Assembly: GCA_965140415.1 (NCBI GenBank)
Contig: OZ223209.1
Coordinates: 2,144,001-2,208,000, forward strand
Origin: Myxococcota bacterium
Lineage (GTDB): Bacteria; Myxococcota_A; SURF-8
Reading direction: 5' to 3'
Length of the DNA: 64,000 nucleotides
Positions within the stretch are counted from its first letter, which is position 1. Every line of letters starts with the position of its first letter. The position numbers and the translations under genes are program-made. The notes under the pieces were generated by a model that was not told the DNA's origin, did no database searches, and worked only from the letters and a program-made list of their open reading frames with translations. Shown here piece by piece: positions 1,611 through 61,678 of the stretch.

Positions 1611-1794
1611 TCAGGATTAATTGTAATTCAACAGTAATGGTTTAATAACAATCACTGGCAGCTGCATCTGTATAGAGTTATTTTACACTATAGTTAATAA
1701 AAAAACTCTTGACTTAGATAATGCTCCATACTAATTCTGATTAAGTATTCAGCCAATCCCTGCAATCCAGTTGATCCTTAACGAGGAGACTCAA

Positions 1795-7700: not shown

Positions 7701-7971
7701 TGAAGAAGGAAGTTGGCAGGATGGAGAAATAAGCGATAGCGATGGGATTCGTGTTGATTTTCATGGTGTTATCAATCCCCCGAAATCGTCCGATGATGAA
7801 GATAGTGGGTTTTATTTCGAGGCCGATGACACAGGGCATGTGTGGATAATCTGGAACACGATGAATGAGGATGTTGGACCTTTTGATGATCTTACAACAG
7901 CTGAAAAGATCATTTTATCAGGCTTCAACGGTGGAGAGTTGGGGCCACGTCCCGAACTCATTTCAAATTAA
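1795..7971 (+). CDS. RHS/YD-repeat protein with lipoprotein signal, Ig-like and Cys-rich N-terminus and acidic C-terminal extension
   Basis: RBS GAGGAG before ATG 1795; lipobox VTAC; many YD/YDxxGR repeats; RHS core end RWYDPSIGRFTSVDPIG...DPFGL; D/E-rich tail. Confidence 0.92.
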   Translation: MKFKYQFQTNAMLLVVVLLVVTACKVTIEKPDGDTYTAGEEIHFKAEYDGTGEIKWKSEYTSPEAITQTIGDSEFKQGVRETGKGYPWEFYKSDLPIGVHKITAYKNDTDMAEVTITIRSFCDVPGTDCSSFGDGLCVEGVCSYEANACISRSLPDGTSCDDGDPATYGELCISGECAAEYGILSTDFQDFGVDYISSEARKPFIMDQAISKLSLYSGEIIEDEKELQLKGRGIDFSIKRYYRSGVIHKESAVFGNWDAEFNEYLISSDLGNEMSYYKGTGLIYELKKVQNQPRTWISTNDGFSGIFQEKSGAVYNVPSGCTVASVRQSGFGQIVNGIWLREADGTRKFFIPTETYYGEQHNGNIYRLAKTIDIDGNAISYYYQNVTDSDRKRVWCIVDTMLRPISVEYENEYSRNISKIEYFDGRTAKYLYNDNGQLATVQLQEPTDNTGQQFFNYLVYTYHVNEANNPLASIQTSDDIEAGREASQTFEYDENYRLSTWNVRDSYEQVGTYTLTYEKAYVSDLQDRDALHNQTTQIDPSGVTTTFRFNKDGLMRERQIFDDLHVGANDSAFSVTESVEFRYFWDNEGNLVEGIKPEGNSVVYEYTNAAGVYSEQDRIDEYWIQNWQKRYHIHNITQKTEKAGPRGDGFGGYATDKVTRYYYEPIANKLYKKVDPMGQVRKTIFDYQESSEGDVRNHFEDPIIMNQTPSVSLVFPESMEFGLGDINHNDELDPMRAHAIKIQMGIIEQDDGSSQDVSKEMEYDFHGRVIKMYDEIGVLTEYSYGKLPISDNASTLGQGYLAEVLIDANYLERALPFEALHERTSYEVNDSGIVVKEVKPDDSVKRYYFNSWTLNNNLCVYEFTPLTGGKGFYSYENYEYSRMGRLVRSSKYVGGINSHEVGDYLVASYSYDSMGRKTRQCKSVTESIKACNNYEYDALGRKIQTETPEGVVTNYIYNSFGKLYKTERGSGNSLIRVMRYYDSNGNMTSRREDVDNNNDGMPDGPVFVFDGFDRLVQKQFEDGTAYRRRYNKLDKMTLERYVSDDNSSLSRVRYEYDSFSRRTKVLADVYDLEGGTGLIDTLEWKYGYDATSRILREVSPSGDYTRCDYDGAGRIAACFDSEGNRIEYFRNEIGRAEAIEITNITDPEVTEAETRSYRWEYSYNALGKITERRRVDTADNDNFLLEEYEYDNLGRLETYTNADRHTTFYYRDLLGHLLRVKKPVLADENNPDGYVMMCTDYDLDGNVVAKYPDGNIGCAPDPNIEYTYTETGQLYEAIYPDGSFTRRSYNKGNQLAQFIDRNGSIISNSYDARERLTGRSVTRGVNVVGTTEESFVYDGLGFLTRAITNNDPETNDDDVVVNMEYDSLGRLLHDNVNGDVTAYEYSGEFMNRVTYPSGRVLDLGRDQKGRIKSLQFAAEMNPVARFDWLDGSYWAGQFGNGTEDAVDYDEFGRLNRLSAWDGEGSSLLDFSILRNGMNRPTERIDYLLSTSEQSVGDQFNLDELNRIRGVKHNIALDTPAALPEWGEEYGYDGRNNIVEQNINGVEYEFSVNTLDQYISRINRNTGEQISYSYDDAGNLIGKQGASENELFSFNFRNQINYYSKTSENLDVKYIYDALGRKRSRIAASNMGNVDESISETIYRYLKWEIVEEETNRDGSFSEGRIFIPGTSIDSVLRMDVLDGSMLDQEYESYYYHYDQSGNVHSLTDQSGEIVETYDYTAYGLATLNLTPGKTSPGNNIMFKGMRYDPYMSLYDSRLRWYDPSIGRFTSVDPIGIWGDTSNHGNGYGFLGLNTYYGSDPFGLMGSIYSDVWSPEDCRENRNIHGRMGAGENAGGTGGAAVPDVLMIFMYNNCGHRDDASTGDENIGDGGYTGITEDGAGYTGDASGDYDEDNDDNDDNDDDDDDDDESNDPDDENEECEDGNCPDEESEEADEQETDGGEGYPADPTEENVSNFDLAKLMRALFGESDEEGSWQDGEISDSDGIRVDFHGVINPPKSSDDEDSGFYFEADDTGHVWIIWNTMNEDVGPFDDLTTAEKIILSGFNGGELGPRPELISN
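7457..7520 (+). repeat. GAT/GAC/AAT low-complexity tract encoding poly-Asp/Asn in the RHS tail
   Basis: gatgatgatgat... run visible directly. Confidence 0.8.
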
Positions 7972-12694: not shown

Positions 12695-13483
12695 TTATTG
12701 TCCGTCGCGCATGCACCTTACATAGTAAGGTTCAGTCTTGCCATACTCTCCCATGCTGCCGTTTCTGAAGGCCACAGCCCATGCTCGGTAGTCCAGGTTA
12801 GTTCTGGACGAAGACCAGAACCAGGAGCATGTTCCACCGATTTCTTCCGGCCAGTAACAGTCATCGGAAGGCCCGCCGTTTACAACGCATCCGCTACAGT
12901 CTTCACTCCAGCAAGTATTTACAACACAAATATCGCCAGAATCGACATTGCAAGCCGAGCATTCATCTTGTACGCCACATAATCCATCGGTTTCAGTTTC
13001 TGTGCATCCTCGAATTATCGTGCGAAGTTCACTAATGTTTGGCAGCCTCCAGTCCTCATGGCCATCAAGAGACAGATCCGCACAGTGTGCCTCGGCCTCC
13101 TCCAAACCCATTTCACCACCCGTAGGAAGCCATTGCCATGTGAACCCTGTGGATGTGTCAGTCCATGTTAAAGGAACCGTGTCAGAATCCCGCTCGACAT
13201 ATTCCAGATCTCCGTCGACAACTTCAGTGGTATCACCATCAACTGTTTCGATGTCTCCGTCGACAACTTCAGTGGTATCACCATCAACTGTTTCGATGTC
13301 TCCGTCGACAACTTCAGTGGTATCACCATCAACTGTTTCGATGTCTCCGTCGACAACTTCTGTGGTATCACCATCCGTACTGGTGTCTCCATCGGTGTCG
13401 TTACTACCATCATCACAGGCAGAAATCGCTAGTATCAGAGTCAGAACAAAAATGATCATAAGGAAAAGACGCAGGGGTTTCAT
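12695..13483 (-). CDS. DUF1566 (Lcl/C-type lectin-like) lipoprotein with DGD-repeat linker
   Basis: RBS GGAGG; lipobox ISAC; DTSTGFTWQ, DWRLPNISEL, FWSSS and YVRCMR motifs. Confidence 0.88.
   Translation of the reverse strand: MKPLRLFLMIIFVLTLILAISACDDGSNDTDGDTSTDGDTTEVVDGDIETVDGDTTEVVDGDIETVDGDTTEVVDGDIETVDGDTTEVVDGDLEYVERDSDTVPLTWTDTSTGFTWQWLPTGGEMGLEEAEAHCADLSLDGHEDWRLPNISELRTIIRGCTETETDGLCGVQDECSACNVDSGDICVVNTCWSEDCSGCVVNGGPSDDCYWPEEIGGTCSWFWSSSRTNLDYRAWAVAFRNGSMGEYGKTEPYYVRCMRDGQ
13209..13375. repeat. 45-bp in-frame tandem repeat, about 3.7 copies (DGDTTEVVDGDIETV)
   Basis: Units start at 13209, 13254, 13299 and 13344. Confidence 0.9.
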
Positions 13484-13570
13484 GATGTCCTCCAAAGAAC
13501 AGAATGTGCATTGATCGTTCTAGTGGGGATACAACTACCACGGCGGAGGTGGTTCTCCTAGAAAGTTCTG

Positions 13571-14024: not shown

Positions 14025-15878
14025 TTACAAGAACTTAATAGCCATATGGTCGGCGTGTTTTTCCCTGGCGCAGTCGGGACAAAGCAGGCGGGCCAGTTCA
14101 CGCTTGCGCTCGGCATCAACGACGCGTTTGATGTATTCCATCATGCGTTTAGTAGTGAACAACTTCCCACAACTGGAGCATTGCAGCAGTTCCAGCTTGG
14201 CCAGTGTCGCACCGCACTTGACGAGTTTGCGTGTATGGCCTTCGTCGACAATCTGTATTGCTCCAGTCGGACAGACGTTGGCACAGCTTCCGCAACCGAT
14301 GCAGCGATCCTGCGGGCGCAGCATGTCGGCGATGACTACCCGGTCGCCTCCTGCATCAACGAAACGCAAAGCGTCAACTTCGACTTTACTGCGACAGATA
14401 CGGGCGCACTCACCGCAACCGATGCACAGATCGCAGCGCAGGCAGCGACGAGCTTCATCGCGTGCGCGGTCTTCGTCCCATTCGCCTTCGATCTGCTCGA
14501 AACTTAGAATCCGTTCTTCAACCGGTAACAGCGGAATGGGAGTCGGTGGGATACGGACCTTGTCTTTGGCTTCCAATTTTACGGTTTCCACCTTTAGCCG
14601 AGGAGAAATGCGAGGTGGGCGGTCAGGAAGAGGTAAACTGCGAATGAAGCGGTCGATGGAAGTTGCCGCCCGTTTGCCAGCCGCGACAGCTTCGATTACC
14701 GTCGCCGGTCCGGTAACGGCGTCGCCACCGGCAAAAACATCCGGGATAGAGGTCTGTTGGTTGTAACGATTGATCACGGGATTACCCCATTTAGTCAATT
14801 CCATGATCTCCCCGGTATCGAGCCAGTCCATATCAGGGCCTTGTCCGATGGCGACAATCACACCATTCGTTTCGATGGTGAATTCCGAACCTTGCTTCGG
14901 AACCGGGCGTTGACGGCCTGATTGATCAGCCGCTCCCAATTCCGCTTTAAGACATTCGATCCCGGTTACGTTCACTCCGTCGCCAACCACTCGTGTTGGA
15001 ATGGTCAGGTAATGGATGTGAATGCCTTCTTCTTCGGCCTGCTCGATTTCCTCTTCGAGGGCGGGCATTTCCAGCCGTGTGCGGCGATAGAGCAGGTGGA
15101 CGTCCGTGCTGCCGAGCCGGATGGATGTGCGTGCAGCGTCGAATGCGCTGTTACCGCCACCTACAACGACGACTCGCTGGCCAAGTCGTTCGCGGTGGCC
15201 AATCTGCTGGCTTTTCAGAAATTCGGTGGCACTGACGACCTGCGAGTAGTCGCTTTCGCCATCCATGCGCATAACATTCGAACGGTGGGCGCCGGTTGCG
15301 ATGAAGATGGCTTGATATCCATCTTCCCGGAGGCTTTTCAATGTCACATCTCCACCGACAGGCGTATTGAGGCGGATTTTAACTCCATAGCTTTCAATGG
15401 TCCGGATTTCTTTTCGTAACACCTCGCGCGGCAGGCGGTAAGCTGGAATGCCAACGGCCATCATCCCTCCCGCCACCGGAAGCGCCTCGAACACCGTCAC
15501 GCTGTAATCCATCTGTGCCAGATAGCAAGCAGCTGTCAGACCAGCGGGACCGGAACCGATGATGGCCACTTTTCCCGTATGGCGTACCGGTGGATGGTAG
15601 ACCACTTCGCTTTCCATTTTCTCCACAGTCGAAGCAGCGAAGCCTTTCAATGCGCGAATCGAGATCGGCGCGTCCTGATATCCCTTTACGCAGGCAGACT
15701 CGCAGGGATGCGGACACACAAGACCGCACACCCAGGGAAAGGGGTTATCTTTGCGGATCAGGTCAACGGCCTCTCGATAACGACCGTGGGCGATCAGGGC
15801 AACGTAGCTTGGAACATCGATTCCAGCCGGACAAGCGGCCTGGCAGGGTGCGGGTGTGTTCGTATCGTTCGGGTTCAT
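14025..15878 (-). CDS. GltD/SudA-like FAD- and NAD(P)-dependent oxidoreductase with N-terminal Fe-S and C-terminal 4Fe-4S dicluster domains
   Basis: CQAACP...CGLVCPHPCESAC; GSGPAG; GGGNSA; FAGGD; CLRCDLCIGCGEC and CIGCGSCANVCP. Confidence 0.9.
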   Translation of the reverse strand: MNPNDTNTPAPCQAACPAGIDVPSYVALIAHGRYREAVDLIRKDNPFPWVCGLVCPHPCESACVKGYQDAPISIRALKGFAASTVEKMESEVVYHPPVRHTGKVAIIGSGPAGLTAACYLAQMDYSVTVFEALPVAGGMMAVGIPAYRLPREVLRKEIRTIESYGVKIRLNTPVGGDVTLKSLREDGYQAIFIATGAHRSNVMRMDGESDYSQVVSATEFLKSQQIGHRERLGQRVVVVGGGNSAFDAARTSIRLGSTDVHLLYRRTRLEMPALEEEIEQAEEEGIHIHYLTIPTRVVGDGVNVTGIECLKAELGAADQSGRQRPVPKQGSEFTIETNGVIVAIGQGPDMDWLDTGEIMELTKWGNPVINRYNQQTSIPDVFAGGDAVTGPATVIEAVAAGKRAATSIDRFIRSLPLPDRPPRISPRLKVETVKLEAKDKVRIPPTPIPLLPVEERILSFEQIEGEWDEDRARDEARRCLRCDLCIGCGECARICRSKVEVDALRFVDAGGDRVVIADMLRPQDRCIGCGSCANVCPTGAIQIVDEGHTRKLVKCGATLAKLELLQCSSCGKLFTTKRMMEYIKRVVDAERKRELARLLCPDCAREKHADHMAIKFL

Positions 15879-15890
15879 TTCACATCCCCA

Positions 15891-16355
15891 TTATTTTGCT
15901 TTGTTTTCGCCTGGTTTTTCGAATGTCAGGCAGCCTGTGACACAGTTTGCAACGCAAGCCGGTTCAAGACCTTGGTCGATGCGATCCTTGCAGAGATCGC
16001 ACTTGACGACTTTATGCTGTTTTTCGTCATACTGAGGTATACCCCAGGGACAGGCATGCATGCACAGTTTACAACCGATACAGGCATCGGATTCAACATA
16101 GACGATGCCGTCTTCCGGTCGTTTCCGCATGGCTCCGGAGGGACAGGCTGAGACACACCAAGCCTTTTCACAGTGTAGACAGGTCATGAAAATGAAGGCG
16201 ATTTTCGGAATACCTTCGTCCCATGTGGGACCGTGCTGGAAGATGCGGCAAAGCCTCGGACCTTCGCATAACTTCTTGTTCGCCTTGCAATGTATTTCAC
16301 AGGAGTAACAGCCGATACAGCCTTCGACATCCTGGTGAATATGATACTTTTTCAT
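15891..16355 (-). CDS. 4Fe-4S dicluster electron-transfer subunit (PsrB/DmsB-like)
   Basis: CIGCYSCEIHC, CLHCEKAWCVSACP, CIGCKLCMHACP and KCDLC...PACVANC. Confidence 0.92.
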   Translation of the reverse strand: MKKYHIHQDVEGCIGCYSCEIHCKANKKLCEGPRLCRIFQHGPTWDEGIPKIAFIFMTCLHCEKAWCVSACPSGAMRKRPEDGIVYVESDACIGCKLCMHACPWGIPQYDEKQHKVVKCDLCKDRIDQGLEPACVANCVTGCLTFEKPGENKAK

Positions 16356-16365
16356 CTTGTATCCT

Positions 16366-18456
16366 TTATAATGCGATCTTTCGTATTCGCACAAAGGTTT
16401 CCTGGTTGGCGATGCCGCCACCAACCGGATCAAAGTCGCTTAGTTTTCCTTTGCATAGACGCTGATCCGCCATGCCGCAGGTATAGGCTCGTTTGAGAAT
16501 CGGGACCGTACGGCCAAAACCATGGTAGGTGAAGACCGCGTCCGGATGAATGGCGTCGGTCACAAGAGCTTGAATCTTAAAACGTGTCGCTCCTCCCATG
16601 CAACTTACCAGAATCTCATCTCCGGAACGAATGTCCATTTCCGCAGCTTTTTCAGTGTTTATCCACAAGGAATTGTGCGGCATGACTTCGTGCAAATACT
16701 CATTGTTTTGTGTATGTGCATGAGCATGAATGGCATGACGACCGAATATCAGACGGAACGATTGCTCCTGAAGTATCTCTGGTTCCTGGTATGGCGGTAA
16801 GGACTCGAAACAGGCATCCTCCAGTTTTTTAGAATCGAATTCGATTTTACCGCTGGGGGTTTTATACTTTATGACGTTTTGATCCTGCACAATTGCATTG
16901 TCGGCCAAGAGAACGAAACCTGTCTTTTCGAAATCTTCAATGCATATACCTGTACCTTCCAGTTGGAAGCGCCACAAATCTTCGATGGTTTCGTACGGAA
17001 AGGCATCACCATGGCCAAGTCGTCTGGCGAGTTCTCTGAAAATCCACCATTCCGGTTTGCTGTCATGGACCGCCTCGATGACTTGTTGCCGTCGTATGAG
17101 CATCGGTTTCGCGCCCTTCTTGACCGCAATCGGAGAATCTTTTTCAAGATAAACCGAATTCGGAAGAATAACATCGGAATACCAAGTGGTTTCGCCATAC
17201 TTGGCATCGATGGAAACCAGCAGATCCAGTCGATCGAGCATGGTTAATTGTGCTTCACGGTCGGGGAAACAGACCAGGGGATCGTGCCTGTAAAAAATAT
17301 AGGCTTTCAAGGGATATGGCTGCCCGGTCATGATTGGGTTCTGGAAAAGCTGGAACAGACCTGGACCCGAATCGAAATGTTTGTATTTCCAACCGACACC
17401 GTCGGCGCGCTTATCAGCAGGGGAGGGCAAAGCATCGGCCAGGCTATTTAGTCCAGGGTATCCTGTATCCCCCATACCCTTGTTCAGGATCTGTCCGCCC
17501 TCAACCTCGATATTGCCCATCAGAACGTTCAGGATATGCAAGGCGCGACTGATGTAGAAGCTGTTGCGGTAGCGAGAAAACATCCAGCCTGGATGAAAAA
17601 TCACCCGCGGTCTTTGTCCGGCGATTTCACGGACGAACTCCCGAATCGATTCTGCTGGAACGCCGGTTTGTTTTTCAGCCCACTCCGCAGTGTAATTCTG
17701 TGTTGACTTCTCCAGAAAGGTTATTCCATCCGTGTATGCTTCGATGAACTCCGCGTCATAGGCTTTCTGCTCTATGATTTCCCGAATGATTGCCAATAGC
17801 AGGGCATAGTCGGTACCGGGGCGAACCATCCAGAAACGCGAAGCCTTGCTGGCGGTCACTGTCGCGCGAACGTCGATGTAGGTTAGCTTCATACCGTTTT
17901 TTATGGCATTCATCACCGTTCGTGCTTCACCTACCTGCAAAGATTCAAGCAGATTACGGCCCAGCAATACCAGGTGTTTGGCGTTCTTGATGTCGTATCC
18001 GAAACCCTTGCGGCCAAGTCCGTACACGGACTGGCTGGCATGATGGACGTTGATCCCGCAGGCCGCATCGTGGTTGGTGTAGTTGGGAGAACCCAACGCC
18101 TTCATGAAGGCTTTTGGTAAATCCTGAAAAGGGCCGCCCCGGCAACTGAAGAGGAGTGAGCGGCCGCCGTACTGCTCAATGATCTTTTGGAGTTTCTCAG
18201 CGGTGTAATCCAGGGCTTCGTCCCAGCCAACCCGTTTCCATTGACCGCTTCCGCGCTTTCCTTGACGGATCATCGGACCCTGCGGGCGTTCTTCCCGGTA
18301 GGTCATATTCGGACCGGCTGAACCTTTTCCACATAAGGCGCCCTTCAGAATATGGGGATTGCCCTCAACCCAGACAACGCGGCCATCCTCCACCTCGGCG
18401 CGGATCGGACAACGTACCGAACACATGCCACATAGCGTGTATATCGATTTTTTCAT
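16366..18456 (-). CDS. Molybdopterin (bis-MGD) oxidoreductase catalytic subunit, PsrA/PhsA-like, no Tat signal
   Basis: N-terminal CGMCSVRC...CGKG FS0 motif directly after the start; NHDAAC candidate Cys ligand; RPGTD, SDVILP and a C-terminal molydopterin dinucleotide-binding domain. Confidence 0.9.
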   Translation of the reverse strand: MKKSIYTLCGMCSVRCPIRAEVEDGRVVWVEGNPHILKGALCGKGSAGPNMTYREERPQGPMIRQGKRGSGQWKRVGWDEALDYTAEKLQKIIEQYGGRSLLFSCRGGPFQDLPKAFMKALGSPNYTNHDAACGINVHHASQSVYGLGRKGFGYDIKNAKHLVLLGRNLLESLQVGEARTVMNAIKNGMKLTYIDVRATVTASKASRFWMVRPGTDYALLLAIIREIIEQKAYDAEFIEAYTDGITFLEKSTQNYTAEWAEKQTGVPAESIREFVREIAGQRPRVIFHPGWMFSRYRNSFYISRALHILNVLMGNIEVEGGQILNKGMGDTGYPGLNSLADALPSPADKRADGVGWKYKHFDSGPGLFQLFQNPIMTGQPYPLKAYIFYRHDPLVCFPDREAQLTMLDRLDLLVSIDAKYGETTWYSDVILPNSVYLEKDSPIAVKKGAKPMLIRRQQVIEAVHDSKPEWWIFRELARRLGHGDAFPYETIEDLWRFQLEGTGICIEDFEKTGFVLLADNAIVQDQNVIKYKTPSGKIEFDSKKLEDACFESLPPYQEPEILQEQSFRLIFGRHAIHAHAHTQNNEYLHEVMPHNSLWINTEKAAEMDIRSGDEILVSCMGGATRFKIQALVTDAIHPDAVFTYHGFGRTVPILKRAYTCGMADQRLCKGKLSDFDPVGGGIANQETFVRIRKIAL

Positions 18457-18467
18457 CACTAACCTCT

Positions 18468-18977
18468 TCAGATTCGGCATTGCGTACGGCCGTATCCGCT
18501 TTTACCTAGTGACTTAATCGCGTTGGCGTACACGATGTAAAGTGCAATGTAGGTAATCACAAGCGGAGCAACATTACTCAATCCATTTTCGAAACCTGTC
18601 AACGGTAGCCGGATTCCGGTGAAGCGTGAATCGATCCAACCGGCGGCAAAAAACACGGGCCACAGGCTGGCGGCGCTGATGGAAATGCCCATGAAAAAAG
18701 CTTTTCCGAATGCCTCGTTAGCCAGTCCGTTGACGCCGGAACGATCATGGCGTGCTTCACCGTTTTTAAGCATGCCCAGGTATGTGTTTTCGAATTTCCG
18801 TGCATCCTGTACATGCTGATTTAGAAAAGCCCCGTTGGCATACATGGCGATTTTCACTGTTGACTGGCCCAGCAACAGGCTGACCAGCGCCAGGATGGCC
18901 GAGCCCAGCCAGAAAGCGGTGACAGGCTCGGCCAGCAGGCGAAACGGAAGGATAGCGATCGAATCCAGCGATGACAT
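18468..18977 (-). CDS. Small membrane protein of unknown function
   Basis: Three hydrophobic segments; lies in the operon between TauE and the Mo subunit. Confidence 0.7.
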   Translation of the reverse strand: MSSLDSIAILPFRLLAEPVTAFWLGSAILALVSLLLGQSTVKIAMYANGAFLNQHVQDARKFENTYLGMLKNGEARHDRSGVNGLANEAFGKAFFMGISISAASLWPVFFAAGWIDSRFTGIRLPLTGFENGLSNVAPLVITYIALYIVYANAIKSLGKSGYGRTQCRI

Positions 18978-19000
18978 GATCGACACTCTCCAGTTATGAA

Positions 19001-20359
19001 TCAGAACGGTGGAAGAATGCTGTAACCAAGGAAACCCTTGGTGCAATAGCGAATTCCGACGTAAAACGCGAGAATGATGAACAGACGCTTGAGCCAGATG
19101 TCCGGGATGTATTTCTGAGTACGAGGTCCGATCATCGATCCCACAAAAATGCCGATCAGCTCAACTCCGATCAAGCTCCAGGGAACGACGACACCCTTGC
19201 CGACAACATATGTAAAAATACTGACGATCATTCCAACAAGGACGGCAAGGGCGCTCGTTCCTGCAACCAGGAACATCGGAAGTCCGGCTACGCTGGTAAG
19301 GAAGGGAACCAGCAGAAACCCGCCTCCAACGCCGAGGAAACTGGCGATGGCAGCAATAAAGAAGCCGCCGATTGCAGGAATATAGGCTTTAAATGCGAAT
19401 TCGACGCCGAAAAACGTAAAGCGAATATGCTTATTGGGTAGAAAGAACATTAGCACAAGACCGAAGGCAACGATAGCGTAGCTGACGTATAAAGCGCCGC
19501 TGAAAAGATGCTCGCCCAGATTGCCGAATAATACACCAACCAGCACCAGAATCAGCGAGGCGAACATCATCCCGATGCTGCCTTCCAGCACCTGCACGCC
19601 TTCATTTACACTGTCATCGTTCTCATTTTTCTCTTTCTGAGCCTTTTCAAACGCTTCGGCTGCGGCTTTGGCGGCTTTCTGCTTTGCGCGGCCACGTTCC
19701 GTGGTTTGATAGAAAAGGTAGCAGCCGAGCACTAAAACGATTAAGCCGAAGAAGCCGAGATAATCTTTCAGGTTAACCTGTCCTGCGGTCAGTCGCGGTG
19801 CGAGATAGGAACCGGCTACCGAACCGACAGCCAGACTGACAGCGATCGGCAACACCAGTCGTTTCATTCTATAGTAATTGAAACTTGAAATTGCACCGCT
19901 AATTCCGACCAGCCATTGATTGCTGACTCGGATGCTGTCGGTCATCAATTTGTTTAGTGGGTTGCCGCTGCCGAAACTTTTGGCGTAGTCACCCAATCCG
20001 AAGATCGTGATATGTCCGACGCCTGCCATGATCCCTCCGAATGCTCCAACAGTGGAAAAAATCCAGCCGACCCAGATGGCCCATAAAAAACCTAAAAGAT
20101 AGGATGGACTTGGCGCGCCAGGGATACCGAACAGCCCGGGTTTTGCATCCGCTTTGATGACTTCCTGTGTTTTAGCGGCATGATTGGGGTCCGCAACGGC
20201 GCTGCTGATCGCAGCCTTGATCTGGTCTGGCATCTCGCTACGCAGCAGATTTGTGGCCTGCTCGCCGGTTTGGGCATGCAGGTCAAAGAAAGAACTGGTG
20301 GACAGCACCAGAACAGCTGTCAAGGCGACAAGTACAAGGATGTTTATGGTGTTTCTCAT
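19001..20359 (-). CDS. Sulfite exporter TauE/SafE family membrane protein with N-terminal extension
   Basis: STVGAFGGIMAG and FLGVGGGFLLVP repeated glycine motifs; AGTSAL. Confidence 0.88.
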   Translation of the reverse strand: MRNTINILVLVALTAVLVLSTSSFFDLHAQTGEQATNLLRSEMPDQIKAAISSAVADPNHAAKTQEVIKADAKPGLFGIPGAPSPSYLLGFLWAIWVGWIFSTVGAFGGIMAGVGHITIFGLGDYAKSFGSGNPLNKLMTDSIRVSNQWLVGISGAISSFNYYRMKRLVLPIAVSLAVGSVAGSYLAPRLTAGQVNLKDYLGFFGLIVLVLGCYLFYQTTERGRAKQKAAKAAAEAFEKAQKEKNENDDSVNEGVQVLEGSIGMMFASLILVLVGVLFGNLGEHLFSGALYVSYAIVAFGLVLMFFLPNKHIRFTFFGVEFAFKAYIPAIGGFFIAAIASFLGVGGGFLLVPFLTSVAGLPMFLVAGTSALAVLVGMIVSIFTYVVGKGVVVPWSLIGVELIGIFVGSMIGPRTQKYIPDIWLKRLFIILAFYVGIRYCTKGFLGYSILPPF

Positions 20360-20395
20360 GTTTTCTTCCTCTTGGGGGTTAGGGATGAATCTTTC

Positions 20396-21709
20396 TTACA
20401 GGCTAAACTGGAGTAGCAGCCGCAGTCGCATATCGCTCTGGGCATCCTTTGAAACATAGTCTTTCATGATCCAACTGGCATCGGTGGCGATCTTGACGTG
20501 ACGGCCAAACGGGTAGCAGTTGATTCCGAATGAAAGTTCATGCTCCACTTTCAGATCGCCGGCTCCTTTATAGCTGTCTGCTAATGTGGGATCGGCAGCA
20601 ACAATCGTCGCTGCGTTCGCTCGGGCATCATCGCGGAAGGTTTCGGTGGTGGTATTTCCGAAATAACGTACAGCGAATTCTAGGGGAATCGGTAACAGGT
20701 AACTTGCCTGTACGACGCCACCCAGAATGGCCAGGTCGATGTCGGAGTCCAGCCCGGATTCCATGTCATGATATGCGGTAAAGAAGGTGCCGAAGAAACT
20801 GAAGCCGTAGGCTTTCATCATGAATTCGAAAGCCGTGCGTGCTGCCGGGTCGCGAAACGCCTTGGGACGGAAGTCATAGGAAAATCCTAAACCAACGGAG
20901 AAACGAAAGTCGCGACGTTTCCAATCCGTTTCGGTAGTGACGTCGATCCCATTGAACAGGTATGCGTAATGGCCGATGATCTCCGGGTGAAACTCGTTGT
21001 ATGCATCCGCACCGCCCGACAACAACCCCGGCTCAAGCATTTTCTCTTTGCTGATCATCGTAATGCCCTTGGTGCAGTTTGATCGCCAGGGAATTCCGCC
21101 ATACACGCCGATTTCGTATTCGTGCGAGGTTTTCTTGCCGTAGCCGTTGTGTAGTGTCAGTCCGAGAGCTCGTTCGGTTCCGTAATAACGAGGTGCATTC
21201 GAGAAATCGACCAAAGCCTGATTTTTCCAGGAATTCATGCGCTTGCGGGAGAAACCAGGCTTATGGGCGCCCAAGCGGAGACGGGCTTGCTGGTGAAACT
21301 GGTAGTCCACAAACAAATCCATCAGGGTGATTTTTCCCGGAATGGTTTCCACCTGCAGTTTGTAGGTAAAGTCTTTACTGAATAGATGTCCGTTCAAACT
21401 GGTTTGGATGCGTTTGAAAGTAAATTTATGGTCGTGGTCTTGGCTTTTACCATTTTCTTCAGTAATATTCGTCCAATTGGAATCATATTGCAATTGGGCT
21501 GCAAAGCCGAGTTGTACCGAAGCCAACCCGTCCTCACTTTCAACCTTCAGCGGTTTTATTTTTTTCGGTTTTTCTGCTTTGACTGGAGCGGCTTGCGTTT
21601 CCTGTGCATTGGCCGGAACAGAAAATGCTATACTCAAAACAAACAGCAGCAGCACGGCGAATATGCGTGGATTGGTTAAAATTCCTAGAAAACATTTTAT
21701 TGAATTCAT
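20396..21709 (-). CDS. Outer-membrane porin (OprO/OprP-like anion porin fold)
   Basis: Signal peptide (ANA-Q), amphipathic beta-strands, LMDLFVDY...LRLGAHK segment, terminal LQFSL. Confidence 0.7.
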   Translation of the reverse strand: MNSIKCFLGILTNPRIFAVLLLFVLSIAFSVPANAQETQAAPVKAEKPKKIKPLKVESEDGLASVQLGFAAQLQYDSNWTNITEENGKSQDHDHKFTFKRIQTSLNGHLFSKDFTYKLQVETIPGKITLMDLFVDYQFHQQARLRLGAHKPGFSRKRMNSWKNQALVDFSNAPRYYGTERALGLTLHNGYGKKTSHEYEIGVYGGIPWRSNCTKGITMISKEKMLEPGLLSGGADAYNEFHPEIIGHYAYLFNGIDVTTETDWKRRDFRFSVGLGFSYDFRPKAFRDPAARTAFEFMMKAYGFSFFGTFFTAYHDMESGLDSDIDLAILGGVVQASYLLPIPLEFAVRYFGNTTTETFRDDARANAATIVAADPTLADSYKGAGDLKVEHELSFGINCYPFGRHVKIATDASWIMKDYVSKDAQSDMRLRLLLQFSL

Positions 21710-21732
21710 AATTGGTATCCTTTCCGCGACCT

Positions 21733-22140
21733 TTATGATGATTGTTTCAAGTGTTGGGTGTGCTCCGGTTTTGAAAGCAAACGCTCCACCGTAACCAGCA
21801 GTTGCTCTCGATCAAGAGGTTTTTGTAAAGTACTTAACTCACAGAGATCATTTAGCTTTTCTATTTCTTTTTTGCATCGTGTGCCCACCAGCAGCAGAAT
21901 AGGAAATTCATCCAGATGGTGTTTTAATAGCGAAGCGAATTGAGTGCAGCGCATTGTTTCCAGTTGAAAATCGATGATCAGTAGTTCACACCGCCCGGAT
22001 GCTTGGTTTAATGTGTCGATGGAGGCTTCCAAAGAATCCACTGCCAGAACCTGATACCCAGCGGATTGAAGGGATAAGGTCAACGAAACGCGGATGCTGC
22101 CTTGATGTTCCGCAACCAGAATGTAAGAATCGGTTTCCAT
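21733..22140 (-). CDS. Stand-alone response-regulator receiver protein (degenerate acidic pocket)
   Basis: ILVAEH, LLIID, LQKP. Confidence 0.65.
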   Translation of the reverse strand: METDSYILVAEHQGSIRVSLTLSLQSAGYQVLAVDSLEASIDTLNQASGRCELLIIDFQLETMRCTQFASLLKHHLDEFPILLLVGTRCKKEIEKLNDLCELSTLQKPLDREQLLVTVERLLSKPEHTQHLKQSS

Positions 22141-22190: not shown

Positions 22191-22206
22191 AGCAATCCGA
22201 GTGCCA
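22191..22206 (-). promoter_or_regulatory. Sigma54 -24/-12 promoter
   Basis: The minus strand reads TGGCAC-TCGGA-TTGCT, matching TGGCAC-N5-TTGC, directly upstream of the operon. Confidence 0.88.
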
Positions 22207-22285: not shown

Positions 22286-22391
22286 TGGAAACTTACTTTC
22301 CAGATTTTATCATGAAATGGAAATAGTGCTGCTTGTTCGATAGGTTAGGTTTTAACGAAAACTAGTTTCCACTTTGTAAACTAAGTTTCCG
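22286..22391. promoter_or_regulatory. Candidate upstream activator sites for the sigma54 activator
   Basis: TGGAAACTTACTTTCCA (22286-22302), CGAAAACTAGTTTCCA (22356-22371), TGTAAACTAAGTTTCCG (22375-22391). Confidence 0.55.
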
Positions 22392-23799
22392 GTTCCAGGT
22401 TTTTACGAAGGCGCTTGTTCAATGCCTGCCGAGTCATACCCAACACTTGGGCAGCTTTGCTTTTATTGCCTTCGCAACGCAGGAGCGCCTCTGTGATCAG
22501 TAAATCTTTAGCGGTTTCGATGGTGGGTAACGAGGCGGGGAAAACGATCTGGTTCTGTCTGTCCTTAAAACAGTTGGCAAGAAGATGCATGGATTCAAGG
22601 TCGCTTTGATCATGCTGTCCAAGGCGCTCGGAGAGGATCTCAAGCGAACCGCTGGCGCAGGCATCGAAAATCATGGCGCGTAATTCCCGAACGTTGCCAG
22701 GAAATGGATAGACAGCCATTGCTTGCAGTATCGGTTTGAAATCCAACACGTGCCAATCGGGATGGCTACCTGCAATTTCCCTTTGGAAAGCTTCGATCAA
22801 TAGTGGCAGATCGCAGATCCGTTCGCGCAAAGCAGGCAATGCAATGTTGTGTGTGTCCAGGCGATAGAATAAATCCCTTCGGAAGAGACCGTTTTTCATC
22901 AAGTCTGTCAGATCTCGATTCGTGGCGGCGATAATCCGGATATCCGCAGTTTTGGGCTTATCTTCTCCCAAGGGAAAATATTCTCCCTCCTGAACCAGCC
23001 TAAGCAATTTAACTTGCGAGGCAACTGATACATCCCCGATTTCATCCAGAAACAGGATTCCGCCGGAGGCTTTGGCCACCAGACCTTCGCGCATTTGCTC
23101 TGCACCAGTAAATGCTCCTTTGCGATGTCCAAACAGGCTGTCATCGAACATCTGTTCTGAAAGTCCGGCAATATTAACTGCGATAAATGGTCCCCGACTG
23201 TCTCCCGCTTTGTGAATGGCGCGTGCCATTAATTCTTTGCCGACGCCGGTTTCACCGGTAATCAAAACCGGTTCGAAAGAATCGGCGATCGCTTCCGCAT
23301 ACTGGAACAGAGAAAACATCAGGCTGTGACCGGTTACAATATCTGAGAACGCCTCCGGGTTTTCCAGTTCAGGTGACTTGATACGACTCTGCAATCGTTG
23401 CATCTGACGGTGTAGCTCGTGGGATCTAAGCACGCGCTCGACAGTATGCAACAGCCGATCTTGGCTGACCGGTTTTACCAGATAATCGTCCGCCCCGCGC
23501 TTCATGCATTCGACGGCGCTTTCCACCGTATCGTTGCCCGTAATGATAATGACTGAAATATCGGGAAATTCAGCTTTGATCTCCCCCAACAACTGTTCTC
23601 CAGAAGGATTCGGCATGGTCAGATCGAGCAAAACCAATGACGGCATCCAGTCGCGGATAATCGTCAGTGTTTCCCGACTCTGCTGGTTTGCTGTGAGATT
23701 CGCATAACCGTCCATGCGCAAGGTCATTTCGTAACTACGTAAAATCTGGACCTCGTCATCTACCAGAAGAATCGGAAGGCTTTTCTGCTGTCGATTCAT
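22381..23799 (-). CDS. Sigma54-dependent NtrC-family response regulator
   Basis: Receiver domain (VDDE, LLD, KP), GETGVGKE, GAFTGA, FLDEIG, RDLFYRL, C-terminal Fis HTH. Confidence 0.95.
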   Translation of the reverse strand: MNRQQKSLPILLVDDEVQILRSYEMTLRMDGYANLTANQQSRETLTIIRDWMPSLVLLDLTMPNPSGEQLLGEIKAEFPDISVIIITGNDTVESAVECMKRGADDYLVKPVSQDRLLHTVERVLRSHELHRQMQRLQSRIKSPELENPEAFSDIVTGHSLMFSLFQYAEAIADSFEPVLITGETGVGKELMARAIHKAGDSRGPFIAVNIAGLSEQMFDDSLFGHRKGAFTGAEQMREGLVAKASGGILFLDEIGDVSVASQVKLLRLVQEGEYFPLGEDKPKTADIRIIAATNRDLTDLMKNGLFRRDLFYRLDTHNIALPALRERICDLPLLIEAFQREIAGSHPDWHVLDFKPILQAMAVYPFPGNVRELRAMIFDACASGSLEILSERLGQHDQSDLESMHLLANCFKDRQNQIVFPASLPTIETAKDLLITEALLRCEGNKSKAAQVLGMTRQALNKRLRKNLEPET

Positions 23800-26390
23800 T
23801 GGTTTTCCTCATTCAGAAATGATCGCTCATCAATAGGCAAAAAGATTGATACCGTGGTTCCTTCTCCTGGAACGGAATCGAACAGCAATAGGCCTTCATG
23901 GTCTTTGATGATCCCATCCGAAATCGATAGTCCCAGGCCCGTACCGCCATTTTCGCGTTTGGTGGTAAAGAAAGGATCTTTGATCCGGCCCATGCTTTCC
24001 TCTTCGATGCCGATTCCTTCATCCCGTATCATCAACCGAACCTGCTTGTGTTCGCCTTGTAGATACTCGGTTGTGATGCTAATCGCCTTTTCCGGGTCGG
24101 GCAAGGCGTCGCAGGCGTTCAAAATCAGATTGACAATGACCTGCTCGATACGCTGGAAATTGCCTTTAAATGTCGGTAAGGGGTCGGCCAGATCCAGTTG
24201 CAGATGTTGCGTCGACTTTTTCAATCGATTGTTTGTCAATGTGATGGCGGAGCGGACGACTTCATTAAGATTCACATTCTGGTCCATCGAGGAGATATCC
24301 TGCCTGGCAAAATCCTTTAAGTTGGTAACGATTCCCTTGATACGTTCCGCGCCTTTGCCGATGTCTTCCAACAAGGTGGGCACCCAGTCCCGACAGGCGG
24401 CGTAGCTCATCTTGCCGATTTCGAAATCCCCGTTTTCCTCGAATTGGCGATCCAGATAGGGTTGCACGCCTTTCCAGATCTCCAGAATGATCGGTGTATT
24501 CAACATGATGAAGCTATTTGGATTGCTGATTTCGTGTGCCATACCTGCTACCAGGGTTCCTAAAGATGCCAGTTTGTCAGCTTGAATAAGCTGCTTTTGT
24601 CGTATTTCCGCAGACTTTTCCAGCTCTTTGCGGCGTGTGATATCGCGCTCGATAACCGCTGCTCCATGTTGACCGCCAACTTTTGGCCGAATGGGAGAAA
24701 CCAATAGAGAAACCGGGAAAATTCGCCCTTCTTTTGACTTGCGTAGTGTTTCGTAATTTCGAAAGGGTAGTCCATTTCGGATCGCCTGGTGGATGTTATC
24801 CAATTCTTCTTCCAGGCTTTCTTCAAGCAGCATACCGAGCGGTTGGCCGATGACCTCATGTTGACGATATCCGTACAAACGTTCTGCACCCAGATTCCAG
24901 GTTAGAATACGGCATTCGTGATCTACAGCAAGAATGGCATCGTTGGAGGATTCAACGATTGCGATCAGCAGGCGTTGTGCTTCCTCTATGCGACTACGTT
25001 CTTCGATAGCAATCTCGACCTTGTCGACGATCGATTGTACGGCGCGGGTGGCATCGGTGATGGAGTTCACTTCGTAGGTGCTGTCTTTAAAATCTCCTGT
25101 TTTATGGTCAATGGAATTGGAATCGGTTCCGTCGCTGGATGTGAGTAGCGTATTCACCTGTTTCTGTAGATGCGCCAACTCTTGCATAATGCCGGAGAAT
25201 GAGTTTTGCAAACGGCTGACGAACTCGTTGAACAGTCCAGCCAACTCGCCGATTTCATCCGTACTGGACGTAGTCAAGCGGCTGTTCAAATCGCCTTTTT
25301 CATATGCGATGTCATGTAGTCGTCCCATCATTTCCTGTAAAGGATTGGTGATGCGATGCCCGATCCACATCAGCGAAGCCGCCAGCAACAGAATCAAGGC
25401 GGATGTTACTCCAGCCACAGACGATCGGAATTGTCGCGTACTGGCCGCAGCCCCCGATTCATCCGTGATTAGTTCCACGACGCCTATTGGTTTGCCACTG
25501 AAATCAATGACGGGAAAGAATGTGTGGTATTCTTGCTCCATCCAGTACGAAATAAATCCCAGACTGCCATCGTCCAAATATCGTGAAACGAGATCGGAGG
25601 CTTGGGTGGAAGGATCGCTGGCGGCCACCAGAATAAAGGCGTTGCTGCCTCCCTTAACCAAAGGATGTTGCTGTCGGTCATTGAATGCGGTCGTGATATC
25701 CGAGTACTTGGCATCCATAAATAAAGCGAAACGGGTATTGGCAGGATCGAGTACGTTGTGAAGAACGCGATCGTAGGAATACAGGATTTCAACAGAGCCG
25801 ACGTGCCGGTTATCCTCTAACCGGATTGGAACGATACCACGAATGGTAAAGCCACCTCTGCCCAGTTCAATGCCTTTAACAGGTTGATTTTCCCGATTGG
25901 TCTTAACGACAGTCTGCCGGAACTTATTCAAATCGTCGGACATATCGACCCAACGCCCCTCTCGCAGAGCCTGCCGTTCTCTCCAAACACGTAACAAGCT
26001 GCGGTTATTGGGCAGATGAAAATGCGCCTGAAGTTGAGAGGAACCCGAATACTCGGCAAATGCCGAAAGGTAGGGGGCTAATTTTCGCCGAAGATCTTCA
26101 CGGGCCTGTTGTACTGTCGAGTCGAAGGGGTTGTCGATGTTGGCGTTTCCGATGCGGTTAAAAATCGTTCTCACTTCAGGCAAAGTTGAAAGGATGCTGG
26201 AAACCTGCAGTGCGTGTTCGGCCAGCAAGTCTGTTTCGCGATCGATGGCAACGATCAAATTCTCATGACGGAGCTTGATACCTTGATTGATCGTATTCTG
26301 AAAAATCGCCGTGGCGATAAGGTAGATGATCAAGCCCAAACCGATCATGCCTAGAATAGCAGGTATCAGAAACTTGTTTCTCATGCTCAT
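23796..26390 (-). CDS. Sensor histidine kinase (dCache-like, HAMP, PAS, HisKA, HATPase)
   Basis: AHEISNP H-box, NLILNACDA, DEGIGI, PFFTTK, GTGLGL; PAS WNLGAERLYGY. Confidence 0.93.
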   Translation of the reverse strand: MSMRNKFLIPAILGMIGLGLIIYLIATAIFQNTINQGIKLRHENLIVAIDRETDLLAEHALQVSSILSTLPEVRTIFNRIGNANIDNPFDSTVQQAREDLRRKLAPYLSAFAEYSGSSQLQAHFHLPNNRSLLRVWRERQALREGRWVDMSDDLNKFRQTVVKTNRENQPVKGIELGRGGFTIRGIVPIRLEDNRHVGSVEILYSYDRVLHNVLDPANTRFALFMDAKYSDITTAFNDRQQHPLVKGGSNAFILVAASDPSTQASDLVSRYLDDGSLGFISYWMEQEYHTFFPVIDFSGKPIGVVELITDESGAAASTRQFRSSVAGVTSALILLLAASLMWIGHRITNPLQEMMGRLHDIAYEKGDLNSRLTTSSTDEIGELAGLFNEFVSRLQNSFSGIMQELAHLQKQVNTLLTSSDGTDSNSIDHKTGDFKDSTYEVNSITDATRAVQSIVDKVEIAIEERSRIEEAQRLLIAIVESSNDAILAVDHECRILTWNLGAERLYGYRQHEVIGQPLGMLLEESLEEELDNIHQAIRNGLPFRNYETLRKSKEGRIFPVSLLVSPIRPKVGGQHGAAVIERDITRRKELEKSAEIRQKQLIQADKLASLGTLVAGMAHEISNPNSFIMLNTPIILEIWKGVQPYLDRQFEENGDFEIGKMSYAACRDWVPTLLEDIGKGAERIKGIVTNLKDFARQDISSMDQNVNLNEVVRSAITLTNNRLKKSTQHLQLDLADPLPTFKGNFQRIEQVIVNLILNACDALPDPEKAISITTEYLQGEHKQVRLMIRDEGIGIEEESMGRIKDPFFTTKRENGGTGLGLSISDGIIKDHEGLLLFDSVPGEGTTVSIFLPIDERSFLNEENQ

Positions 26391-26476
26391 TAACAAACCG
26401 CCTGCCGTACTTATAAACAGGAATTTCGACCTCGTTTCAGTGATATTACCCGAAAATCAGCCAAACGGCAATTTGC

Positions 26477-59768: not shown

Positions 59769-60091
59769 GCGGTTCCTCGCTACGCAAATGTCCGAATTCC
59801 ACAAGATCCGGGGGACTATAGCCCACTGCCGGGACCGAAGTAAAGAATTTTCCTGTAGGTCTTTTTCATAACAAGAAAGAATGGGAAACATTCATTGATT
59901 TTCTTGATCCGAACCCGTATAGTCTTCAACCAATCGGATACGGGACGAATCGGGAGGCTCTTTGCCCGGTTCGAGTGACAGTTCATGTGGGCATCTGCGA
60001 TCTCAAGGTGGTGTGCCCCGCATCGCAGCTTGGCGTCGGATTCCGGCGCGGGGTACGAGCGAAGGTTCTCGTACAAAATGGAGGAAGAAGC

Positions 60092-60733: not shown

Positions 60734-60734
60734 C

Positions 60735-61595: not shown

Positions 61596-61615
61596 CGCAC
61601 CACGAAGCTACGAAA

Positions 61616-61659
61616 AACAAACAGCGCGATTCCTGACTGTTCGGGAACGCGCCGTTTGT
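61616..61659. terminator. Probable bidirectional terminator between convergent genes
   Basis: ACAAACAGCGCGATTCCTGA...TCGGGAACGCGCCGTTTGT imperfect inverted repeat. Confidence 0.55.
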
Positions 61660-61678
61660 AACTTTATGGGTTTTGCTC

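Follow-up and report, generated by a model that had tools for sequence, protein, structure and literature searches.

A candidate NADPH-linked cytoplasmic sulfur-oxyanion reductase encoded with transport and regulatory genes in a Myxococcota bacterium

Introduction

How could a molybdoenzyme of the thiosulfate reductase type obtain its electrons and its substrate if it never leaves the cytoplasm? The question is raised by a seven-gene operon (positions 14025..22140, minus strand) in a Myxococcota bacterium (Myxococcota_A; SURF-8; assembly GCA_965140415.1) whose genome is one contig of 5.98 Mb. Positions refer to the stretch 2,144,001-2,208,000 of contig OZ223209.1, 64,000 nucleotides (nt) in length and hereafter called the window. 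The operon encodes a molybdenum (Mo) subunit related to PhsA and PsrA, a four-cluster iron-sulfur (FeS) subunit and an iron-sulfur flavoprotein, preceded by genes for a response-regulator receiver (REC), a porin, a TauE permease and a small membrane protein. An initial annotation had proposed that the three enzyme subunits form a soluble, pyridine-nucleotide-linked enzyme acting on an imported sulfur oxyanion.

Here we conclude, with a probability of roughly 55%, that the host, a dissimilatory sulfate reducer, uses the operon as an inducible system to take up and reduce an external sulfur oxyanion, thiosulfate being the most likely one. Part of the background against which the operon was first viewed, namely that the known enzymes of this type are exported by the twin-arginine translocation (Tat) pathway, needs updating, as genomic and proteomic studies describe cytoplasmic PhsAB proteins with no anchor (PMC9751629, PMC13490349). 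The anchor-less PhsAB core is already published; the NADPH flavoprotein module is what is new.

Results

The seven open reading frames (ORFs) of the operon all lie head to tail on the minus strand in the order REC, porin, TauE, small membrane protein, Mo subunit, FeS subunit and flavoprotein, with intergenic gaps of 23, 36, 23, 11, 10 and 12 nt in the 5' to 3' direction of the genes. These coordinates, gaps of at most 36 nt and the Pfam assignments given below bear out the earlier grouping of the seven genes into one operon. Its GC fraction is 0.515 vs 0.502 in the rest of the window, and a simple scan finds no terminator-like site just past the flavoprotein gene. Three sequencing runs of DNA or unspecified type, all from one study, are listed for this DNA, two of them containing the stretch, and none is of RNA.

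The catalytic subunit (16366..18456, minus strand; 696 residues) is a leaderless PhsA/PsrA-like protein of the molybdenum-bis(pyranopterin guanine dinucleotide) (Mo-bisPGD) type, with Pfam matches to Molybdop_Fe4S4 (45.5 bits), Molybdopterin (135.5 bits) and Molydop_binding (50.2 bits). The ORF is maximal, with an in-frame TAA stop 8 codons upstream of an alternative ATG at 18480; judged from the local sequence, the more probable start is ATG 18456, with GAAGAGG in front of it and the stop of the small-membrane-protein gene 11 nt upstream. The cysteine motif of the FS0 cluster begins at residue 9, a twin-arginine (RR) motif is absent, and Thermus thermophilus PsrA aligns with the subunit only from PsrA residue 38 onward. 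Residues C9, C12, C16 and C42 are invariant in 21 sequences. The upstream stop, the position of the cysteine motif and the missing RR motif together confirm the view of the initial annotation that the subunit has no twin-arginine leader. Its companion claim, that no NrfD/PsrC or cytochrome b anchor is present, holds for the operon, in which Pfam finds no NrfD or cytochrome b gene. None of the five NrfD matches in the genome falls in the window or less than 100 kb from the operon, the nearest being about 125 kb away, and a hydropathy scan finds no membrane segments in the Mo, FeS, flavoprotein and REC proteins. Three traits of the respiratory PhsABC and PsrABC enzymes, the Tat leader, the NrfD-type C subunit and a score over the PhsA equivalog cut-off, are missing from the window enzyme.

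The best NCBIfam match of the Mo subunit is PhsA (NF012032) at 547.3 bits, followed by the formate dehydrogenase alpha subunit (Fdh-alpha) at 236 bits. Its best solved relative is T. thermophilus PsrA (2vpw; E 1.4e-109), then acetylene hydratase (2e-54) and then formate dehydrogenases. Cys133 aligns with residue 173 of PsrA (2vpw_A), a cysteine that we take to be the Mo ligand. An exhaustive search of cluster representatives with the Mo subunit gave 12,694 matches at E <= 1e-3, from which 113 candidate ids were drawn and 94 sequences of 640-830 residues kept. FastTree places the window protein in a clade of 21 rows lacking the RR motif (support 100), sister (support 99) to four Tat-bearing rows, three of which score 998-1058 bits on the PhsA model (cut-off 694) and the fourth 656. 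IQ-TREE on 40 rows recovers the leaderless clade and its union with the Tat clade with support of 100 and 99 in a quick run and of 100/100 and 100/99 in a careful run. Because the leaderless clade is sister to a Tat-bearing clade that is positive on the PhsA model, the Mo subunit belongs among the thiosulfate-reductase-type enzymes. A grouping with formate or nitrate enzymes, which the initial annotation had named as fatal to its proposal, appears neither in the trees nor in the NCBIfam ranking. The gene is present in a single copy and is the sole PhsA-like gene in the genome.

The second subunit (15891..16355, minus strand; 154 residues) is a PhsB/PsrB-like four-cluster ferredoxin without a signal peptide (Fer4_11, 87.4 bits). 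Its 16 cluster cysteines, arranged in four groups, are invariant across 17 sequences, and its structural matches include PsrB (2vpw_B, E 1.4e-19) and the FeS subunit of an aldehyde oxidoreductase (8c0z_C, E 7.8e-18).

The third subunit (14025..15878, minus strand) is an iron-sulfur flavoprotein of the GltD/NfnB/DsrL kind, with Pfam matches to Fer4_20 (73.2 bits), Pyr_redox_2 (132.6 bits) and Fer4_7 (46.8 bits). From the N-terminus it comprises a 2x[4Fe-4S] domain, a flavin adenine dinucleotide (FAD) domain with its NAD(P) domain, a linker, a C-terminal 2x[4Fe-4S] domain and a tail with four cysteines (Cys4 tail). GSGPAG (FAD) lies at residue 108, GGGNSA (NAD(P)) at 240, and CxxCxxCxxxC motifs at 485 and 526; Y264-R265-R266 (YRR) and the tail cysteines C567, C570, C600 and C603 are invariant in all 26 aligned sequences. 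Among solved structures the protein matches 9bov_A (E 3e-128), 9n5u_A (named NfnA), 8oh5_C and NfnI (5jca_L, E 5e-92), and then GltD. DsrL has the same domain order, and DsrL-2 proteins carrying YRR work with NADP(H) only, the motif holding the 2'-phosphate in NfnB (PMC7596348). Since YRR is tied to NADP(H)-only activity in DsrL-2 and NfnB, NADPH is the predicted nucleotide of the window flavoprotein, and by architecture we regard DsrL as its probable closest described relative. The earlier assignment of an NAD(P)H-linked, GltD-like subunit thereby stands and is refined to a DsrL architecture with an NADP(H)-linked motif. The flavoprotein gene lies about 700 kb from dsrAB, and its four paralogues in the genome are likewise absent from the dsr locus.

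A modeled complex of the FeS subunit and the flavoprotein reaches a median interface score (ipSAE) of 0.68 (0.67, 0.69 and 0.68 in three runs) against 0.00 in each of three controls. Among solved complexes 116 of 157 attain this mark, and among mismatched pairs 2 of 215, a calibration only roughly valid here because the alignments, of 17 and 26 rows, were built by the analysts. The runs share at least 93% of their contacts, and the pLDDT of the partner is at least 86. In the predicted interface, FeS residues ~93-108 meet the C-terminal ferredoxin domain and Cys4 tail of the flavoprotein (residues 494-617). A flavoprotein that fails to interact with the enzyme was a further possibility raised in the initial annotation; the predicted docking, together with the conserved synteny described below, speaks for interaction.

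Five database proteins of 880-902 residues (P0234, P0397, P0398, P0401 and P0402; 28 member sequences in total), the best among the longer relatives of the FeS subunit, present the two subunits as one polypeptide, with a ferredoxin part 53-63% identical to the window FeS subunit. A metagenome scan with P0402 returned 80 loci, 42 of which hold both parts, and in all 42 the parts are separate ORFs. The five fused proteins are for this reason treated as unverified gene calls. In nine metagenome loci the two ORFs share a frame with one intervening stop, and all six junctions inspected have TAG.

The survey of gene neighborhoods suggested by the initial annotation shows that the Mo-FeS-flavoprotein module recurs. 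With the Mo subunit as query, a word-index search scored 8,000 candidates and detected 2,819 proteins, of which the best 120 are 52-100% identical and almost all about 700 residues long; names among these relatives include Dissulfurimicrobium, Desulfurivibrio, Thiovibrio, Desulfobulbaceae and Thermodesulfobacteriaceae. Scanning species genomes yielded 79 loci (numbered with the prefix L), against which the proteins of the window and of representative loci were compared. Nearly all of them have the FeS gene after the Mo gene, and 13 of the 79 have a window-type flavoprotein gene no more than 6 kb from the Mo gene, in the syntenic order Mo-FeS-flavoprotein. The FeS and flavoprotein genes are adjacent in 41 metagenome loci; wherever more than 2.3 kb of upstream sequence is available (29 loci), the Mo gene accompanies them, directly upstream in 27 and downstream in 2. 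Genes of complex I (nuo) lie within 6 kb in 13 of the 79 genome loci.

A tree of 79 Mo rows, from which L021 was dropped as only a 451-residue segment matched, divides into two subfamilies (support 100). The window's subfamily has 24 rows, 13 of them flavoprotein-linked, 10 Nuo-linked and one (L035) with only 690 bp of downstream flank. The other comprises 55 rows, which are linked to TauE, carry neither partner or have flanks too short to judge. The full set of nine genes, from the sensor kinase described below to the flavoprotein, is kept in L001 (Mo identity 85%; a record labelled Myxococcota) and L080 (81%), and L081 (64%) keeps eight of the nine, without REC. Most Mo relatives are labelled Desulfobulbia or Thermodesulfobacteriota. 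In the window's own phylum the Mo gene occurs in 4 of 301 sampled genomes (E <= 1e-150), all in its order, and in none of five other genomes of its family; this sparse distribution may reflect horizontal transfer, but the GC content shows no sign of it.

Other partners accompany the Mo-FeS pair elsewhere. At L055 (10001-19659) the pair lies directly upstream of nuoA-B-C-D-H-I-J-K-L, with no nuoEFG between; nuo genes also accompany it at L024, L039, L045, L047, L048, L053, L056, L057, L059, L060, L066 and L067. The ten Nuo-linked Mo rows form one clade (support 100) beside the flavoprotein-linked rows. In Desulfolithobacter, PhsA-1 and PhsB-1 are GF1_30490 and GF1_30500, and the Nuo proteins GF1_30510 and GF1_30520 were detected only under thiosulfate disproportionation (PMC9751629). 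PhsAB may here be the electron module of a complex I lacking NuoEFG. A different arrangement occurs at L037 (5666-14838), L049, L064 and L078, where the Mo and FeS genes are joined by a gene for a longer GltD-like protein (717 residues in L037, ORFs of up to ~1050 residues in the group of L049, L064 and L078) and a NuoF-like gene; L037 adds a NuoE-like gene and one for a 2Fe-2S/GCV_H protein. By gene content, such clusters resemble bifurcating NfnB-type modules. At L058 (10001-17643) two tandem Mo-FeS pairs are followed by a single gene for a GltD-like flavoprotein of 741 residues.

Upstream of the enzyme genes lie three genes with a plausible part in transport. The OprO/P-like outer-membrane porin (20396..21709, minus strand) matches Porin_O_P (PF07396) at 26.6 bits (cut-off 20.9), a match that spans residues 74-174 and profile positions 6-112 of 370, not the full barrel; the protein has a hydrophobic, signal-peptide-like N-terminus and orthologues at 51-71% identity in L001, L080 and L081. 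The TauE/SafE (TSUP) anion permease (19001..20359, minus strand; 452 residues) matches TauE (PF01925) at 81.4 bits (gathering cut-off 32.6) and shows by hydropathy a hydrophobic N-terminal leader and a charged central loop. In 41 of the 79 genome loci a TauE gene is found no more than 6 kb from the Mo gene; of the 23 metagenome loci with more than 5.5 kb upstream, 18 have one and 11 have the gene for the small membrane protein.

The small membrane protein (18468..18977, minus strand; 169 residues) matches no family in Pfam or NCBIfam. Of its three hydrophobic helices, the first is followed by a long charged helix. Feature matches in the Atlas to DUF106/EMC3_TMCO1 clusters (0.85-0.87) are a lead only. 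The best Foldseek match of its AlphaFold2 model (pLDDT 81.9) is 7tut_8, a multipass-translocon entry, and is weak (E 0.054, TM 0.53), with TMCO1-translocon, EMC and Get1/Get2 entries ranking lower. As a lead, the protein may be a bacterial representative of the TMCO1/EMC3/Get1/DUF106 (Oxa1-superfamily) fold. The protein occurs in two sequence types across loci and co-occurs with TauE at every locus where it is found; in L043 and 11 metagenome loci it stands beside TauE, the pair lying on the strand opposite the enzyme genes in the loci read. Dissulfuribacter thermophilus, too, encodes it together with TauE and away from PhsAB (PMC13490349). A role as anchor of the enzyme was considered and rejected, as the protein lacks NrfD similarity and pairs with TauE; its gene associations place it with TauE and not with the enzyme.

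Two regulatory genes lie directly upstream of the operon, outside the span of the initial annotation. The first (23796..26396, minus strand) encodes a sensor histidine kinase with a periplasmic dCache_3 domain (59.6 bits) and HAMP (48.5), PAS (56.8), HisKA and HATPase_c (76.9) domains; its orthologues adjoin the operon in L001, L080 and L081. The second (22381..23799, minus strand) encodes an NtrC-type sigma-54 activator with REC, AAA+ and Fis-type helix-turn-helix domains (Response_reg 82.9, Sigma54_activat 192.9 and HTH_8 37.2 bits), kept at 54-74% identity in the same three loci. Between the activator and receiver genes, on the strand of the operon and about 50 nt upstream of the REC start, is a sigma-54 -24/-12 promoter (22192..22206, minus strand; TGGCAC-N5-TTGC, TGGCACTCGGATTGC), the sole zero-mismatch match in the window. 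The corresponding operons of L001, L080, L081, L043, L074 and L013 have a similar site in front of them, with 0-1 mismatch. Upstream of the site, intergenic repeats picked out by eye (22290..22395, minus strand; GGAAACT.AGTTT, GGAAAGTAAGTTTCC, and GGAAAC...GTTT motifs) are candidate binding sites of the activator. The first operon gene (21733..22140, minus strand) encodes a single-domain response-regulator receiver (Response_reg, 38.8 bits) with orthologues at 49-55% identity in L001 and L080. An NCBIfam search gave no ligand-specific name for the kinase, the TauE permease or the porin.

Elsewhere in the genome, dsrA (580.9 bits) and aprA (900.7 bits) both exceed their cut-offs, and a dsrB-like match lies beside dsrA. 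The two matches over cut-off identify the host as a dissimilatory sulfate or sulfite reducer. In the sulfur disproportionator D. thermophilus a cytoplasmic PhsAB-like enzyme lacking a Tat leader and PhsC is among the most increased proteins during thiosulfate disproportionation, and TauE and a co-occurring membrane protein rise likewise (PMC13490349). A second study describes PhsAB without a C subunit and states that no functional analysis of PhsAB exists (PMC9751629), Desulfobulbaceae are reported to carry only PsrAB (PMC13047784), and PsrA and PhsA are still listed as periplasmic and are placed with SrrA in one lineage, separate from that of SoeA and bSreA (PMC10100899). Our literature search, which covered titles and selected passages of the papers listed and few subscription journals, found no published PhsAB-flavoprotein enzyme. 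A D. dismutans cluster given as 'FdhA + HydB + HydG' was considered as a published example and could not be confirmed as one; its named subunit types differ.

The window also holds genes away from the operon. Positions 1771-7971 contain an ORF of 2066 residues whose RHS repeats score 103.4 bits in Pfam; two ORFs of no clear family come after it. At 12695-13514 (minus strand) lies a gene with an Lcl C-terminal domain; a spurious ORF on the opposite strand repeats SPSTTSVVSPSTVSM, which marks the DNA there as tandemly repetitive. Genes for an adenosine 5'-phosphosulfate (APS) kinase and a sulfotransferase lie near each other at 59975-62620 and suggest a role in sulfation, using 3'-phosphoadenosine 5'-phosphosulfate (PAPS), unrelated to the operon.

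Discussion

The features described above can be assembled into a route from an external signal to cytoplasmic reduction. The dCache kinase would sense a compound outside the cell and activate the NtrC-type regulator, which would in turn open the sigma-54 promoter. The OprO/P-like porin would let the anion through the outer membrane, and the TauE permease, together with its small TMCO1-like partner, through the inner one; a soluble cytoplasmic enzyme of three subunits would then reduce it. Electrons would pass from NADPH to the FAD of the DsrL/GltD-like subunit, to its C-terminal ferredoxin domain, through the four PhsB-like clusters to FS0, and finally to the Cys-ligated Mo-bisPGD. If the substrate is thiosulfate, the most likely candidate, sulfide and sulfite would be formed, and the host DsrAB would then reduce the sulfite. 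We infer the substrate, the inducer and the directions of transport and catalysis; contact between the FeS subunit and the flavoprotein is a prediction of the complex model. The missing leader and anchor, the placement with PhsA, the YRR motif and the docking model all favor the soluble three-subunit, pyridine-nucleotide-linked enzyme of the initial annotation, with which we also agree that the substrate cannot be read from the sequence.

Several observations weigh against this reading. The function of the three-subunit enzyme is read from its genes, as it is for its close relatives. The Mo subunit falls below the PhsA equivalog cut-off (547.3 vs 694 bits) and carries Arg106 at the position of PsrA His145 and Phe293 at that of Arg332, residues that we take to line the PsrA active site. 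The standard potentials of the thiosulfate couple (about -402 mV) and of NADPH (about -320 mV) put the reaction at a disadvantage of about 80 mV that only low sulfite and sulfide would offset, and for this reason polysulfide, another anion or help from ferredoxin are live alternatives. TauE-family proteins carry the name of exporters, and transport could accordingly run outward. The complex score is the model's own confidence, obtained with the alignments noted above, and supports binding without showing it; none of the 42 metagenome loci fuses the two subunits. The D. thermophilus proteomics is indirect evidence, concerning the other subfamily, which lacks the flavoprotein. Desulfolithobacter PhsA proteins are of low abundance (PMC9751629), and phsAB mutants of D. 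alaskensis G20 show only mild thiosulfate fitness defects (PMC4215793).

The same NADPH-linked machine might act on another substrate, whether polysulfide or elemental sulfur, tetrathionate, selenite or another chalcogen oxyanion. The substrate range of a Psr or Phs enzyme is not readable from sequence (PMC13047784), PsrA, PhsA and SrrA share a lineage (PMC10100899), and Thermotoga possesses a cytoplasmic NAD(P)H polysulfide reductase with thiosulfate activity (PMC9431562), presumably one free of molybdenum; the sub-threshold PhsA score points the same way. Such a change of substrate nevertheless seems doubtful to us, even though NADPH-driven polysulfide reduction would by the same kind of potentials run downhill: the closest clade with Tat leaders is positive on the PhsA equivalog model, the relative's proteomic induction was by thiosulfate, and a phosphate/oxyanion-type porin with a TauE permease suits a small soluble oxyanion. 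The flavoprotein could instead be a DsrL-2-type NADPH:DsrAB oxidoreductase, co-expressed with PhsAB and feeding the reduction of the sulfite that thiosulfate cleavage would yield, while PhsAB draws on another carrier. DsrL domain order, YRR and dsrAB in the host, all present here, are the criteria stated in PMC7596348. However, the gene lies far from dsrAB and keeps its synteny with the Mo and FeS genes across 13 genome and 29 metagenome loci, its product is modeled as docking on the FeS subunit by the C-terminal domain, the single-polypeptide gene calls, unverified as they are, link the same two proteins, and the Cys4 tail goes unmentioned in the excerpted description of DsrL (PMC7596348). 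We think this division of labor unlikely.

Two further alternatives concern the energetics and the direction of the reaction. That the flavoprotein harbors an NfnB-like bifurcating or confurcating site, at which NADPH and ferredoxin together drive a low-potential reduction or two acceptors are coupled, would fit a thiosulfate couple below that of NADPH, the NfnB-type modules that are its best solved relatives (9bov_A, 9n5u_A, 8oh5_C and 5jca_L), and the NuoF-like gene next to the flavoprotein in L037, L049, L064 and L078, joined in L037 by a NuoE-like one. The window operon, however, encodes neither a NuoE/F-like or NfnA-like second subunit nor a ferredoxin, and the same fold serves for simple electron transfer in GltD and DsrL (PMC7596348), so that bifurcation here strikes us as decidedly improbable. 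Lower still must be rated a soluble SoeAB-like enzyme working oxidatively, which would oxidize sulfite or reduced sulfur, reduce NADP+ and send its product out by way of TauE and the porin. Export of sulfite and sulfoacetate gave the TauE/SafE family its name, and cytoplasmic SoeA-type enzymes occur in the wider MopB family (PMC10100899). Yet the Mo subunit groups with PhsA, in trees that held no named SoeA sequence, and the SoeA lineage is separate (PMC10100899); a kinase that would sense outside the cell and an inducible porin fit uptake, and the host is a sulfate reducer with reductive machinery. An oxidative role would on this evidence be a considerable surprise.

Read as an NADPH-linked reductase of an imported oxyanion, the window enzyme is closest to the cytoplasmic PhsAB of Desulfobacterota, namely DITHS69_2028/2027 of D. 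thermophilus and PhsA-1 and PhsA-2 of Desulfolithobacter (PMC13490349, PMC9751629), with which it shares a leaderless A subunit, a four-cluster B subunit, the lack of PhsC, and TauE and the small membrane protein nearby or co-regulated. The window Mo subunit is 52-58% identical to relatives from Dissulfurimicrobium, Desulfurivibrio and Thiovibrio and forms one family with them, these relatives being the basis of the comparison. Unlike the Desulfobacterota enzymes, it belongs to a sister subfamily (split supported at 100), has a third gene for a DsrL/GltD-like NADPH flavoprotein and a porin in its operon, and comes from a host in another phylum, where 4 of the 301 genomes sampled carry the gene. 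No electron-input subunit is proposed for the Desulfobacterota PhsAB in the excerpted articles (PMC13490349, PMC9751629).

With PhsABC of Salmonella and PsrABC of T. thermophilus (2vpw) the window enzyme shares the catalytic fold, the FS0 motif, the position of the Cys ligand and a four-cluster B subunit. Unlike them it lacks a Tat leader and an NrfD-type C subunit and thus a link to quinol, and its electrons are predicted to come from NADPH. The flavoprotein resembles DsrL of the DsrL-2 type, and also NfnB and GltD; shared are an N-terminal two-cluster domain, an FAD domain with embedded NAD(P) domain, a linker, a C-terminal two-cluster ferredoxin domain and YRR. Unlike DsrL, to which it is likened by architecture, it is encoded with PhsAB-like genes instead of dsr genes and bears an extra, invariant Cys4 tail. 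The tungsten aldehyde oxidoreductase AorABC (8c0z) offers a parallel in layout, combining a cytoplasmic pterin subunit with a four-cluster ferredoxin and an FAD/NAD(P) subunit, but its catalytic subunit is of the AOR and not the MopB/DMSOR family and acts on another substrate. No 8c0z chain appears among the structural matches of the window flavoprotein at E <= 1e-20, and the AOR flavoprotein is presumably of another type. The NAD(P)H polysulfide/thiosulfate reductase of Thermotoga maritima, which we take to be a flavoprotein devoid of molybdenum cofactor, is similar in its proposed type of reaction, with no homology to the window catalytic subunit implied. It has been likened to archaeal NAD(P)H-dependent enzymes (PMC9431562).

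These comparisons prompt a broader and more tentative proposal, which we consider possible without holding it to be probable. Leaderless PhsAB may be a plug-in head for a sulfur couple of very low potential, wired in different lineages to a DsrL-like NADPH flavoprotein, to a flavoprotein with NuoE/F-like proteins, or to a complex I lacking NuoEFG; the window enzyme would then be the first molybdenum-dependent NADPH:thiosulfate oxidoreductase, and its operon would have been gained horizontally. If so, a sulfate reducer outside the Desulfobulbia would respire thiosulfate without the cost in proton-motive force that PhsABC incurs.

Two proteomic studies of sulfur disproportionators left unsettled both the electron supply of PhsAB and the entry of thiosulfate (PMC13490349, PMC9751629). 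For one branch of the family the window operon provides a testable answer, in the form of an NADPH flavoprotein predicted to dock on PhsB, a route of entry through the porin, TauE and its small partner, and a sigma-54 two-component switch; as the three proteins are predicted to be soluble and the module is compact, it lends itself well to expression and assay. A second way round the same energetic difficulty is suggested by the sister branch with its complex I link. If this picture is correct, turnover of thiosulfate and polysulfide in anoxic sediments could be partly cytoplasmic and linked to pyridine nucleotides, and gene surveys based on PhsC and PsrC would miss it.

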